Of a DNA stretch of 64,000 nucleotides, positions 9,044 to 34,159 are shown one piece after another (the stretch's first letter is position 1; the number at the start of each line of letters is the position of its first letter). Both the position numbers and the translations under genes were made by a program. The notes beneath the pieces are model-generated. The model was not told where the DNA came from, searched no databases, and saw only the letters and a program-made list of their open reading frames with translations. The stretch covers positions 35,589-99,588 of the forward strand of contig CAYFZH010000001.1 of assembly GCA_964347785.1 (NCBI GenBank). Direction: 5' to 3'. The stretch comes from an uncultured Candidatus Saccharibacteria bacterium. Lineage in GTDB: Bacteria; Patescibacteriota; Minisyncoccia; Phycocordibacterales; Zambryskibacteraceae.

Positions 9044-9093
9044 CCACAAAATAAGAAAAGACTGGAGCAGTCCAGTCTTTTCTTATTTTGTGG
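9044..9093. terminator. Perfect 23-bp-arm palindrome (ccacaaaataagaaaagactgga-gcag-tccagtcttttcttattttgtgg), a bidirectional terminator abutting the 3' end of tRNA-Ala(UGC)
   Basis: Exact inverted repeat with a 4-nt loop. The outer arm includes the tRNA 3' end (..TGG). Confidence 0.6.
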
Positions 9094-9163
9094 ACCCTAC
9101 CGGGATCGAACCGGTCACCTCCTCATTGCAAATGAGGCGCTCTACCAGATGAGCTAAGGGCCC
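9091..9163 (-). tRNA. tRNA-Ala (anticodon UGC)
   Basis: 73-nt cloverleaf folded by hand: acceptor GGGCCCU/AGGGUCC with a G3:U70 pair, D-arm GCUC/GAGC containing GG, anticodon loop UUUGCAA, and T-loop UUCGAUC. CCA is not encoded. Confidence 0.85.
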
Positions 9164-9222
9164 TAAATTTCTAACCGATTGATTCTAGTATAAAAATGGA
9201 GCAAAATAAAGCCCTAATAAAA

Positions 9223-9293
9223 GGGCCCATAGTATAGTAGTAACACGCATCCATGGCATGGATGAGTCCGGAGTGCGATTCTCCGTGGGTCCA
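9223..9293 (+). tRNA. tRNA-Ala (anticodon GGC), noncanonical D- and T-loops
   Basis: 71 nt: acceptor GGGCCCA/UGGGUCC with G3:U70, and anticodon stem CAUCC/GGAUG with loop AUGGCAU. The D-loop lacks the conserved GG and the T-loop reads UGCGAUU (G at position 55). CCA is not encoded. Confidence 0.6.
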
Positions 9294-9317
9294 CAAAAGC
9301 GCGGGGCGCTTTTGTGG
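9291..9317 (+). terminator. Perfect palindrome ccacaaaagcgc-ggg-gcgcttttgtgg including the tRNA-Ala(GGC) 3' end
   Basis: 12-bp arms with a T-tract in the 3' arm. It shares the CCACAAAA/TTTTGTGG outer motif with the palindrome at 9044..9093. Confidence 0.5.
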
Positions 9318-9329
9318 CGTGTTCACAAG

Positions 9330-9405
9330 GGACGATTAGCTCAGTTGGTTAGAGCGTACGATTCACATTCGTAAGGTCACAGGTTCAATTCCTGTATCGT
9401 CCACC
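9330..9405 (+). tRNA. tRNA-Val (anticodon CAC)
   Basis: Acceptor GGACGAU/AUCGUCC fully paired, D-arm GCUC/GAGC with GG, anticodon loop UUCACAU, and T-loop UUCAAUU. Discriminator A followed by CC. Confidence 0.85.
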
Positions 9406-13484: not shown

Positions 13485-14497
13485 TGAAAACGAAAGTGAT
13501 CGCAACAATCGGACCCAAGTCCGAGAATGAGTTAGTTTTGTCCAAATTGGTCGAGGCTGGTATCGACGTGGCTCGTATGAACTTCTCTCACTGTACAGAA
13601 GAAGAGTTTATTAAGCGTGTGGAGATTATCCGCCGAGAGAGTGAGCGTCTAGGGAAGAAAGTTTCTATTCTCCAAGATCTCCAAGGTCCTAGGATCCGTG
13701 TAGGGAAGCTCCCAGAAGATGGTCGGGAACTAGAGAAGGGGGAGAAGGTCATTTTCACCGTGGCTCATGAGGAGGAAGGCAAGATCTTCGTCGACGAGGC
13801 GTCACTTATAGAGAGTATCGAGGTGGGGCACCCGATTTTCCTCTCGAGTGGTGAGATGGAGCTTATGGTCATAGAGAAGGGTAGAGAGGAGTTCACTGCG
13901 GAGGTGGTGCGAGGCGGGACACTCTTCTCTAGGAAGGGCGTCAATGTGCCGGAGACTCCGCTCAAGTTCAACGGACTGACAGAGAAGGATCTCAAGGACT
14001 TGGAGTTCGGGCTCTCTCAAGGAGTGGACTATGTGGCGATCTCCTTCGTCCAGTCGGCTGAAGATGTGCGACGTGTACAAGAGATAGTACGAGGTCGTGC
14101 GAGAGTGGTGTCGAAGATCGAGTCCTCTCAAGCTCTGCGTAACATCGACGAGATCATCCGCGAGTCAGACTGCATCATGATCGCTCGAGGAGATCTCGGG
14201 GTCGAGGTACCTATGGAGAGAGTGCCATTTATCCAGAAGAACCTCATCCGCCAAGCTCACTGGCACAACAAGGGTGCGATAGTGGCGACTCAGATGCTTC
14301 TCTCGATGGTCAGCAACAAGAAGCCCACTCGTGCAGAAGTTTCTGACGTGGCAAACGCCGTCCTCGACGGAGCAGATGCGGTGATGCTCTCAGATGAGTC
14401 AGCAGGAGGGCATTACCCTATAGAATCTGTAGAGATGATGATCAAGATTGCTCGCGAGACCGAGCGCATCTTCCATGAGACGGACAATTTGCTCTAA
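13484..14497 (+). CDS. pyk: Pyruvate kinase, short form lacking the C-terminal allosteric domain
   Basis: TKIVATIGP, MIARGDLGVEVP and ATQMLLSM motifs. At 337 aa it is shorter than the typical ~470 aa. The TAATGA start overlaps the upstream gene. Confidence 0.85.
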   Translation: MKTKVIATIGPKSENELVLSKLVEAGIDVARMNFSHCTEEEFIKRVEIIRRESERLGKKVSILQDLQGPRIRVGKLPEDGRELEKGEKVIFTVAHEEEGKIFVDEASLIESIEVGHPIFLSSGEMELMVIEKGREEFTAEVVRGGTLFSRKGVNVPETPLKFNGLTEKDLKDLEFGLSQGVDYVAISFVQSAEDVRRVQEIVRGRARVVSKIESSQALRNIDEIIRESDCIMIARGDLGVEVPMERVPFIQKNLIRQAHWHNKGAIVATQMLLSMVSNKKPTRAEVSDVANAVLDGADAVMLSDESAGGHYPIESVEMMIKIARETERIFHETDNLL

Positions 14498-32890: not shown

Positions 32891-33292
32891 ATGACTGTCA
32901 CCAAAGAAAACAAGTATATAGAGACCGTAGGAAGAAGGAAGACTTCTGTGGCTCGTGTTCGCATCACTCCTGCTGCCAAGACTACTATCGTTGTCAACGA
33001 ACGCGAATTTGAAAACTATTTCCCAACCAAGGAGTTGCAGAATGTCGTCCTTGCCGTCTTTGCTGATGCCACTGAGAACTTCACTGTCACTGCCAAGCTC
33101 GTCGGAGGTGGAGTGTCCTCTCAAGCACAGGCTCTAAGACACGGTCTCGCTCGTGCTCTAGAGAAGAATGCTCCAGAGCTCCGTACCAAGCTCAAGGTTA
33201 AGGGTTACCTCAAGCGTGACCCTCGTGCCAAGGAACGCCGTAAGTTCGGTCTCAAGAAAGCAAGAAAGGCCCCTCAGTGGTCTAAACGCTAA
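32891..33292 (+). CDS. rpsI: 30S ribosomal protein S9
   Basis: S9 consensus with C-terminal ..RRKFGLKKARKAPQWSKR. Confidence 0.95.
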   Translation: MTVTKENKYIETVGRRKTSVARVRITPAAKTTIVVNEREFENYFPTKELQNVVLAVFADATENFTVTAKLVGGGVSSQAQALRHGLARALEKNAPELRTKLKVKGYLKRDPRAKERRKFGLKKARKAPQWSKR

Positions 33293-33296
33293 AGCG

Positions 33297-33330
33297 AAAA
33301 ACCAGACTCGAAAGAGTCTGGTTTTGTTTT
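33297..33330. terminator. Bidirectional rho-independent terminator aaaaccagactc-gaaa-gagtctggtttt followed by GTTTT
   Basis: Perfect 12-bp stem flanked by A- and T-tracts. It ends the ribosomal-protein operon. Confidence 0.75.
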
Positions 33331-33333
33331 GGA

Positions 33334-33444
33334 CCACTGAGGGTGAGAAAGGGGTCGGGAAAACTCCGGTTTTCCCGTGGAGGAAGGCAGGGCGAAGCCC
33401 GTTGGAAAACCGTGGGTTTCCAAAGAGCGGGAGCGACTCAGTGG
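33334..33444 (+). ncRNA. GC-rich structured element of about 111 nt, closed by the helix ccactgag/ctcagtgg, with internal hairpins built on GGAAAAC/GTTTTCC repeats. Class unknown, strand uncertain.
   Basis: Long-range 8-bp closing helix and two or three internal hairpins (gggaaaac-tccg-gttttccc; tggaaa..tttcca; gggc-gaa-gccc). It lies between two bidirectional terminators with no plausible ORF. Class and strand are unconfirmed. Confidence 0.3.
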
Positions 33445-33452
33445 AGCAAGAG

Positions 33453-33495
33453 ATATAAAAAGAATCGGGCGAGCCACAGTGGCTCGCCCTTTTCA
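33453..33495. terminator. Bidirectional terminator gggcgagcc-acagt-ggctcgccc flanked by U-rich tracts
   Basis: 9-bp GC stem with TTTTC on the plus side and ATTCTTTTTATA on the minus side. It terminates minus-strand gene 33509..34159. Confidence 0.65.
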
Positions 33496-33508
33496 CACAG
33501 AAGAACTT

Positions 33509-34159
33509 CTACCAGCTCGGCCACCACGTGACGTTCGCACGCAGTTTCCGGTTGTGGGTGCTGTACGCGTCGACCTCGAGGCGAGCTTCGGCGTTGTCGC
33601 TGAACCGTCTCGCGGCTCCGACGACCACTCCGAGGTAAGGCCGGTGACCCTCTTCCGGCTTCAGTTCGAGCCAGTCGCCAGAAACGCAGAGGTATACGTC
33701 GAGACAGGTCCTCGACTTGTACATCTCGTACGCCTTGTGGTTGGTGACGAGTGCCACTCCGCCGAAGACGCCCGCGATCGGTCGGATGCCGAGCTTGTCG
33801 AGTACCTTCGGTCTCGGCGTTTCCCATGTCATCTGACCACGGACTGCGAGGTTGCTCGAGCGGACAACTCCGCCCTTGCTGTAGCTCACCGGACCGTAGT
33901 CTGAACCGCCCATCTCGTGGACGTCGACCTTCTCGTTGATGGAGAAGCGTTCGACGACGAGGCTTGCCCGAAGGGGCTTGTCGCGGTCGGCGAACATGAT
34001 GCCGATGGACCATGGCTTGATCGGCTCAGCTTCTCCATAGAAGTTGAGATCCGATGACGAGCCCAAGGTGTACACCGTGCCAGTGATGCCGATAGTGCGC
34101 TCCTCGGCCTTGGCCACAGATGCGACCAGCAGGACCAGAAGAATCATGAGATATTTCAC
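33509..34159 (-). CDS. Secreted beta-rich protein with signal peptide and a C-terminal aromatic residue (..VTWWPSW), resembling small outer-membrane beta-barrel proteins
   Basis: GTG start at 34159 with SD GGAGGT. Signal peptide KYLMILLVLLVASVAKA, alternating hydrophobic pattern, and a terminal W. About 58% GC. The ORF-track start at 34228 is an upstream extension. Confidence 0.5.
   Translation of the reverse strand: MKYLMILLVLLVASVAKAEERTIGITGTVYTLGSSSDLNFYGEAEPIKPWSIGIMFADRDKPLRASLVVERFSINEKVDVHEMGGSDYGPVSYSKGGVVRSSNLAVRGQMTWETPRPKVLDKLGIRPIAGVFGGVALVTNHKAYEMYKSRTCLDVYLCVSGDWLELKPEEGHRPYLGVVVGAARRFSDNAEARLEVDAYSTHNRKLRANVTWWPSW

Follow-up and report, generated by a model that had tools for sequence, protein, structure and literature searches.

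The 64,000-nt stretch analysed here (contig CAYFZH010000001.1, positions 35,589 to 99,588; hereafter the window) comes from a member of the Patescibacteria (Parcubacteria, Zambryskibacteria-like) and carries, just downstream of the ribosomal protein gene rpsI, a folded segment of 111 nt. It is almost certain that this segment belongs to a conserved folded family which, as far as the comparison of its copies tells, is widespread in Patescibacteria and previously uncatalogued. Very probably, the segment is part of an insertion element that replaces gene ends. The complete explanation, in which it is the conserved module of a small, site-specific and non-autonomous insertion element free of open reading frames (ORFs), has about an even chance of being correct, and the core of the segment is probably a recombination or guide module; recombination by way of a folded strand is a possibility that we advance tentatively.

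The duplicated rpsI end

The gene order in this part of the window is rpsM-rpsK-rpsD-rpoA-rplQ-rplM-rpsI, followed by the element, a convergent ORF of 212 aa and grpE-dnaK. The features of the element and of the rpsI end, in window coordinates, are the following:

33271..33286, plus strand: X, first copy, formed by the last rpsI codons CCCTCAGTGGTCTAAA; 16-nt inverted repeat with 33328-33343
33273-33280 and 33437-33444, plus strand: octamer CTCAGTGG, direct repeat common to both X copies
33281..33292, plus strand: Y1, gene end TCT AAA CGC TAA (S-K-R-stop); residues as in the second copy, codons different
33290-33292, plus strand: rpsI stop codon TAA, from the sequence
33298..33331, plus strand: T1, intrinsic terminator (hairpin and T-run) within the X:X' helix; 12-bp perfect stem
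33328..33343, plus strand: X', inverted copy of the rpsI end, TTTGGACCACTGAGGG; inverted repeat with 33271-33286
33334-33341 with 33437-33444, plus strand: P1, closing helix of 8 bp, CCACTGAG/CTCAGTGG; from the minimum free energy fold and the inverted repeat
33344..33436, plus strand: conserved core, a four-way junction; from covariance model R1, covariation and strand evidence
within 33344..33436, plus strand: J1/2, GGTGAGAAAGGGGT
33356-33377, plus strand: P2 hairpin, CGGGAAAAC-TCCG-GTTTTCCCG
within 33344..33436, plus strand: J2/3, TGGAGGAAGGCA
33390-33400, plus strand: P3 hairpin, GGGC-GAA-GCCC
33402-33423, plus strand: P4 hairpin, TTGGAAAACC-GTG-GGTTTCCAA
within 33344..33436, plus strand: J4/1, AGAGCGGGAGCGA
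33437..33456, plus strand: second copy of X and Y2, CTCAGTGG AGC AAG AGA TAT; from the sequence and the direct repeat
33457..33493, both strands: T2, second bidirectional terminator; from a minus-strand terminator scan, a 10-bp stem and an inverted repeat

A preliminary description, made by a model from the letters alone, had proposed a segment of this length, closed by an 8-bp helix between two terminators and devoid of any ORF or obvious promoter. The helices, the motif and both terminators were all recovered at the coordinates it gave: CCACTGAG and CTCAGTGG pair to close exactly 111 nt, only shadow ORFs overlap the segment, and no sigma-70-like site was found nearby. Two features had escaped it, namely that 16 nt including the 5' arm of the closing helix complement the last rpsI codons, across T1, and that the 3' arm opens a second copy of the rpsI end.

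Two helices use this one 5' arm. The 3' part of X', CCACTGAG, is the 5' strand of P1 (8 bp), and X' as a whole pairs over 16 bp with the first X copy, in a helix that encloses T1 and the stop codon. The two pairings are mutually exclusive, and in all inspected copies P1 is weaker than the upstream helix. The T1 stem consists of AAAACCAGACTC (33298-33309) and GAGTCTGGTTTT (33314-33325), followed by TTTTGTTTT; P2 and P4 are the two GGAAAAC...GTTTYCC hairpins, and the purine motif GGAGGAAGGCAGGGCGAAGCCC lies at 33379-33400. A hairpin enclosing the end of a coding sequence is no general habit of this genome: any such pairing was found in 4 of 54 ORFs, and only that of rpsI encloses a separate terminator.

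Concerning the downstream copy, 33437..33456 encodes Q-W-S-K-R with the stop codon lost (QWSKRY at +22), and it opens with the 8 nt that form the 3' arm of P1. As read from the sequence, this stretch is the displaced original rpsI end; it specifies the same residues as the live end with other codons (AGC AAG AGA vs. TCT AAA CGC), and X' is complementary to the Y1 version (TCTAAA/TTTGGA). Y1 and T1 would both have come in with the element, and a hairpin with a T-run occupies the T1-equivalent place in most copies at other loci. The octamer CTCAGTGG at 33273-33280 is the presumed crossover, since it is shared with the second copy. As for T2, its hairpin (GGGCGAGCCAC-a-GTGGCTCGCCC, 33467-33489) has T-runs on both strands, the terminator scan having flagged the minus strand only. 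It is read as the original rpsI terminator, because a terminator stands directly 3' of the rpsI stop codon in relatives without the insert, and it also serves the convergent 212-aa gene.

Distribution of the family

A species-level sample of 80 rpsI loci was searched (individual loci are cited by L numbers) with nhmmer and by alignment, and the element was found 3' of rpsI in four of them (L025, L030, L037 and L041), whose RpsI proteins are 60-69% identical to that of the window. At these four loci, the element is ~90% identical over long stretches and shows compensatory changes in P1, P2 and P3. Exact-protein look-ups led to near-identical contigs, one of which has a G-C to G-U change in P4. 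The pattern of the most conserved core bases matched at least 120 metagenome loci; the family figures given below (101-105 copies) come from among these listed matches, a sample biased by the search pattern. Presence across rpsI loci is patchy, including among close relatives.

A covariance model built from the family (R1) was scanned over the 64 kb of the window and found the rpsI-linked copy at 33331-33430 with 95.3 bits (E 1.5e-28). Neither this model, whose other hits (≤11 bits) were treated as noise, nor motif searches revealed a second copy in the window. A weak R1 match at 13725-13804 on the plus strand (11.2 bits, E 0.034), inside a long ORF, was likewise treated as noise. The three tRNA genes of the window (9091-9403; one on the minus strand, two on the plus strand) are without the element, though tRNA 3' ends are the commonest target of the family.

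The preliminary description had found no convincing resemblance to signal recognition particle (SRP), 6S or RNase P RNA and had suggested a comparison with Rfam, which agrees with this view. The gathering scan of the window with Rfam 15 gave the three tRNAs only, the scan of 33200-33600 at E≤10 gave only noise (≤21 bits), and ten related loci had no Rfam match either. No match was obtained in a pattern scan of IMG/VR, and no similarity in a phage collection and PLSDB. A literature search for an earlier description of the element found none; it turned up the integrase-target precedent discussed below and a paper on group I introns in Patescibacteria tRNA genes, unrelated to the element. The element represents a new structured fold family, widespread, strongly conserved and without an Rfam model, in a phylum whose non-coding repertoire is almost unknown.

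Some loci carry more than a single intact core. L133, L168 and L174 have two cores each within 2-5 kb, adjoining different tRNA genes; half of P2 is internally duplicated in L166, and in L130 a broken core lies directly upstream of an intact one.

Conservation and strand of the fold

Taken alone, the single-sequence fold of the window copy is not beyond chance (z = -1.5 on the plus strand and -2.9 on the minus strand). Its homologues show that the fold is real, since in other genomes the helices are kept via compensatory changes; the earlier proposal of a structured non-coding element stands, and so does the conservation of its helices in related genomes, a comparison that it had singled out. 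The covariation alignment comprised 101 distinct listed cores, P1 not being alignable family-wide. Among these cores, 98.5% of cells pair, and double-change cells number 102 vs. 37±4 in shuffles, none of the 500 shuffles reaching the observed value; slid-register controls collapse. P2 covaries, two of its pairs showing 36 and 43 double changes, and its pairs include 47 G·U vs. 6 A·C. This excess, together with the folding energies (the plus strand folds better in 95 of the 101 copies), designates the plus strand of the window as the structured one. The same counts and energies rule out a small RNA (sRNA) from the minus strand, which the better minus-strand z-score had hinted at.

P3 is free in length and sequence and always pairs. 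The apex, noted in P3 and in the 3' extension of tRNA-linked copies, is very often GCGNAGC (GCGAAGC, GCGGAGC or GCGTAGC) with tandem G·A flanks. This is the motif of exceptionally stable DNA mini-hairpins and may be relevant to the choice between a DNA and an RNA role of the fold. P4 is nearly invariant, its 5' half being fixed by the search pattern; the tetraloops of P2 are UCCG and GGGA, and the rpsI-type P1 has a conserved U·U mismatch. The mini-hairpins and the upstream terminator lean towards a DNA form, the UNCG/GNRA tetraloops and the site downstream of highly expressed genes towards an RNA form. Protein coding through the core was rejected: an open frame is present, but the length changes of P3 are not multiples of three.

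The arms are the variable part of the family, with 100 distinct 5' arms among 105 listed copies. Cognate arms pair better than swapped ones, with medians of -16.3 vs. -12.8 kcal/mol (p = 8e-11).

Recurring layout and targets

Loci read base by base (tRNA-His, tRNA-Arg, tRNA-Gly, tmRNA, L33, CTP-synthase-like, RNase H, glycosyltransferase, L11 and MurD) share a common plan: gene body, X, Y1 (a complete new terminus), a linker usually holding an intrinsic terminator, X', core, X again, Y2 (the old terminus) and the old terminator. X' is the reverse complement of X over 10-23 nt, the core measures ~95 nt, and the linkers 15-100 nt, apart from one with a Prok-JAB ORF. An upstream copy of either arm (at least 13 nt, at most one mismatch) was found for 47 of 96 listed elements, vs. 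1 of 96 per arm in controls. The main targets among the 103 classifiable listed copies are:

Same-strand tRNA genes, 14 amino-acid specificities: 47
rpsI: 18
rpmG-like (L33): 5
tmRNA: 1

Several target assignments are single loci. The 3' end of the gene is the site for CTP-synthase-like, L11 and uvrC, and the 5' end for genes on the opposite strand that encode RNase H, MurD and a GT4 glycosyltransferase. Where a 5' end is the target, what has been displaced is the old N-terminus, including its own ATG. X of the tRNA-linked copies spans from the T-loop/T-stem boundary to the discriminator base, the classic T-loop sublocation for integrases. In other genomes, X' tracks the local synonymous rpsI codons or the local tRNA 3' end.

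This distribution bears on the origins that the preliminary description had offered. A processed 3'-untranslated product specific to rpsI is contradicted, only ~17% of the listed copies following rpsI and most following tRNA genes, and the suggested tie to the GC-rich minus-strand gene is lost, as other copies have different neighbours or none. An integration scar came closest, in that the duplicated rpsI 3' end flanks the segment, but the segment is no inert scar: the core is ~90% identical and its helices covary between genomes with RpsI proteins of only 60-70% identity.

The displaced ends often look like coding sequence. At least nine other rpsI-linked copies keep HWSKR and a stop codon, their Ser, Lys, Arg and stop codons varying between genomes, and the codons in these displaced ends differ from those of the live copy and from each other; displaced ends are likewise coding-like at the L33, CTP-synthase-like, RNase H and MurD loci. 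They fit two homologous ends, selected in separate lineages and joined by the insertion. Decay of a local duplicate does not fit coding-like displaced ends with different codons. At L100, L202 and L031 the two copies are identical over 24-45 nt, which fits a recent insertion within the lineage.

One tmRNA-linked copy (L200, 89-1420) has a linker of ~800 nt with a 190-aa Prok-JAB (JAMM-motif) ORF on the opposite strand; beyond this linker ORF come a terminator, X' and the core, and then another tmRNA 3' end. It is the only listed copy with cargo, and because of this ORF the carriage of cargo by the element is possible.

A probable gene-end-replacing insertion

The explanation proposed here starts from an insertion of ~164 bp (33281-33444) into the last rpsI codons, at the octamer CTCAGTGG. 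Since the insert carries its own S-K-R-stop and terminator, rpsI would stay intact, and the original end and terminator would be displaced downstream. The mobile form would be a small circle made of X, the new gene end, the terminator, X' and the core, which would recombine conservatively with the chromosomal X and leave the observed layout. The circle junction would then read ...GAGCGACTCAGTGG joined to TCTAAACGCTAA... (X of the second copy to Y1), and the restored empty site rpsI ...CAGTGG joined to AGCAAGAGATA....

Among the established insertion sites of tyrosine integrases that rebuild the gene end are the 3' termini of rpsI, rpmG and tRNA genes (PMC4701971, PMC5357655). In agreement with the layout of such integrative elements at gene termini, the insert is bordered by a direct repeat of the gene end, and sequence brought by the element makes the target whole again; no integrase gene of the tyrosine type lies inside the element next to an att site. 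The 111-nt segment is read as the recombination or recognition module because its order of inverted site, ~90-nt spacer and site is that of integrated CTX-phi and of attC cassettes, in which recombination acts on a folded single strand. The single-stranded X'-core-X fold would be this module, its closing helix formed between X' and the downstream X; the core would recruit a recombinase or transposase encoded elsewhere, and the site would be recognized through the target-derived arm, which would either imitate the target duplex or pair with the target. To our knowledge, an inverted target copy paired with a conserved single-strand four-way junction has not been described for such integrase elements.

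Arm-programmed, nucleic-acid-guided integration, in which a ~95-nt scaffold would carry an exchangeable X' reading the target by pairing, seems unlikely. If true, one trans enzyme, or the fold itself, could place a cassette in dozens of gene termini while repairing each of them, which would make the family a novel type of guided recombination element, confined to Patescibacteria. Should the arm direct insertion, it would offer a very small retargetable integration module and a handle on horizontal transfer in hard-to-manipulate Patescibacteria. The element also explains a recurrent oddity of annotation, i.e. partial second ends of tRNA, tmRNA, rpsI and rpmG genes and double terminators.

Several observations weigh against this insertion model. 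No clean pair of empty and occupied sites was found among the fetched loci, mobility being deduced from layout and patchiness only, and no recombinase, transposase or reverse transcriptase was found near the copies (±4 kb), none having been sought genome-wide. X' matches the first X, including chromosomal bases left of the presumed crossover, better than the downstream X; at L041 the match is 20/20 for the first X vs. 9/11 for the downstream one, a difference that a simple hairpin mimic would not lead one to expect. The direct repeats range from 8 to ~45 nt, a range that a fixed staggered cut would not leave, and the replication-strand test (GC-skew orientation) was null (24/39, p = 0.2). The UNCG-/GNRA-like tetraloops and tandem G·A suit RNA as well as or better than folded DNA, and part of the seeming constancy of GGAAGGC and the 5' half of P4 is a search-pattern artefact. 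The match between X and X' could also be maintained by template-switch correction of quasi-palindromes, a neutral alternative to selection on the arms. ORF clustering within ±4 kb of the copies showed only housekeeping families (ribosomal and chaperone genes) to recur.

Alternative explanations

A single core (~90% identity) with many targets, where only the arms vary and X' tracks local synonymous target variants, is also what a guide RNA would produce. Here, a read-through RNA from the strongly transcribed upstream gene would pair its X' with target DNA, and its core would bind an RNA-guided recombinase or transposase encoded elsewhere, as in the insertion sequence (IS) families IS110/IS1111; the strand-specific G·U pairs, the UCCG/GGGA tetraloops of P2 and the position of most listed copies just downstream of highly expressed same-strand genes point the same way. 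It remains an unlikely explanation, given that some copies are antisense to the neighbouring gene, that no IS110-type or other enzyme gene lies nearby (±4 kb), that known bridge-RNA elements neither duplicate nor replace gene ends, and that the fold is usually separated from the upstream gene by a terminator, with no promoter seen. The upstream terminator and the lack of a promoter also count against a stable cellular small RNA, for example a protein-binding or 3'-derived sRNA, made by read-through of the terminator, with the end duplications as traces of spread or copying. Such an RNA would account for the strong purifying selection on the core with its covarying helices, and for a fold on the sense strand of upstream tRNA and ribosomal protein genes; moreover, P1 of the tRNA-linked copies is the 3' strand of the acceptor and T-stem paired to its complement, and could recruit tRNA-processing enzymes. 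It is nonetheless improbable, with several copies per short contig, a patchy presence among close relatives and no consistent downstream or partner gene, and it leaves the inverted and direct copies of its own insertion site unexplained. Even if the element were only a small RNA, its mimicry of tRNA ends and multi-copy spread would be unusual.

The gene-end-replacing layout and the choice of targets match elements with tyrosine integrases, the core is placed where the P arm of attR would be, and one linker holds cargo, all of which could suggest the leftover attachment site of a larger element. In this case, attL and attR would remain as in a cis-mobilizable element (CIME), and the core would be double-stranded arm DNA whose GGAAAAC/GTTTTCC palindromes are sites for integrase or accessory proteins. 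The excess of G·U (47) over A·C (6) shows single-strand pairing rather than symmetric protein sites, P3 varies freely yet always pairs, no integrase lies nearby, and more than 20 different core-type targets with one arm sequence would be unusual, which makes this possibility very improbable. Displaced ends that often keep frame and stop codon, and an X' that pairs with the end of the 5' 'exon' like an internal guide sequence, recall an intron-like or bypassed insert, in which the stretch between the X copies would be removed at the RNA level and the downstream gene end also used. However, the upstream copy already has a stop codon and then a terminator, the X:X' helix of the window has a U·G pair that is not kept elsewhere (all 20 pairs at L041 are Watson-Crick), the two copies at L029, of a different core type, are not spaced by a multiple of three, the insert matches no known ribozyme family, and a ~95-nt core is far below the size of any self-splicing intron; this last explanation is barely credible.

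Other identities were rejected. A group I-like P1 with a U·G splice site does not fit, the U·G not being conserved; small ribozymes, riboswitches, tmRNA, SRP, 6S and RNase P RNAs gave no covariance-model match in Rfam; and ARAGORN called the neighbouring tRNAs but never the element as a tRNA or tRNA-like gene. As for a riboswitch or cis-acting leader, the downstream genes are unrelated, convergent or absent, and the window copy has a terminator and a convergent gene on its downstream side. A miniature inverted-repeat transposable element or other IS-derived miniature would not have arms that differ between copies (100 distinct among 105 listed) and direct repeats from 8 to ~45 nt.

Comparison with known systems

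The element is filed here as a non-autonomous integrative cassette with a folded att-like module, and as a new structured family at the same time. For the proposed mechanism, the nearest parallels are integron attC sites, the attP hairpin of CTX-phi and the guide sequences of IS608. Integron attC cassettes have the same order: they start with a site, continue with a cassette body that often lacks an ORF, an inverted arm and a loop that is variable or structured, and end with the site again. Their recombination site is an imperfect hairpin formed from one specific strand, as the G·U bias indicates here, stem mismatches are tolerated or conserved, like the U·U of the rpsI-type P1, and the cassette lacks an enzyme gene. 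Unlike in attC, the RYYYAAC and GTTRRRY core sites are absent, the arms being CCACTGAG/CTCAGTGG in the window and tRNA or gene-end sequence elsewhere; here the loop is conserved and the arms are variable, the reverse of attC, many gene termini are used instead of an attI platform, and no intI gene was seen within ±4 kb of the copies.

Integrative mobile elements exploiting Xer (IMEX) of the CTX-phi type, as Val and colleagues reportedly described in 2005, have a folded single-stranded attP hairpin that is recombined by the host XerCD. After integration of CTX-phi, one end consists of an inverted target copy, a ~90-nt spacer and a functional hybrid site, which corresponds to X', core and X. Its target, however, is dif and not gene termini, its spacer has no conserved four-way junction, and it is a phage of several kb vs. 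a unit of ~160-250 nt here, which has no match in viral and phage collections.

Integrative and conjugative elements (ICEs), integrative and mobilizable elements (IMEs) and CIMEs use the same kinds of targets, supply the gene end and leave a partial end copy as a direct repeat (PMC4701971, PMC5357655); CIMEs, in addition, are without an integrase of their own. These elements differ in being kilobases long with double-stranded att sites, and in none of them is a conserved folded core known next to an inverted copy of the target; here, no integrase or conjugation genes were found within ±4 kb.

The IS200/IS605 family (IS608, with single-strand transposition and DNA guide sequences) and REP/RAYT or PATE derivatives resemble the element, as it is read here, in being small and hairpin-rich, in acting on one strand, in reading their target by short internal pairing and in having non-autonomous copies that an enzyme encoded elsewhere would move. 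In contrast, the guides of IS608 are 4 nt long, with no target duplication or gene-end replacement, the end hairpins of these elements are unrelated in sequence, and no tnpA/tnpB was seen near the copies. Finally, a structured RNA with variable target-complementary segments, like the bridge or seek RNA of IS110/IS1111, would explain one scaffold with many targets. Bridge RNAs, however, are encoded beside the recombinase inside the IS, whereas no DEDD/RuvC-like IS110 gene recurs here (±4 kb); they use internal loops and not a terminal helix, and their donor and target share only the core dinucleotide.

Other inserts and ORFs at the rpsI site

Other small structured inserts occur 0-200 nt after rpsI at L004, L058, L048, L077, L080, L031, L029, L062 and L079. 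They hold an inverted copy of the rpsI end, then a second W-S-K-R-stop, and have no Rfam match; no match by eye to hammerhead-like cores was obtained among them. One other insert type begins X'-GGCCGCAG...GAGGYGGGGYC. An inverted rpsI-end copy of at least 11 nt was found at 11 of 76 loci vs. 4 of 76 controls. At L007, the rpsI end recurs in inverted form over 21 nt, with one mismatch allowed, at 27-47 nt after rpsI and around the terminator; neither a core nor a second copy is present. At L027 (the rpsI end and ~130 nt downstream), three rpsI ends follow one another, which suggests stacked insertions.

The convergent 212-aa ORF of the window (33509-34147, minus strand) has 61-62% GC vs. ~50% around it and a signal-peptide-like N-terminus, with no Pfam match. 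It occupies the spacer between rpsI and grpE, which is only 10-40 nt long in many relatives. Unrelated small ORFs lie in the same slot at element-bearing loci (181 aa at L030, 71 aa at L025 and 87 aa at L041), and the rpsI-grpE slot appears to be variable.

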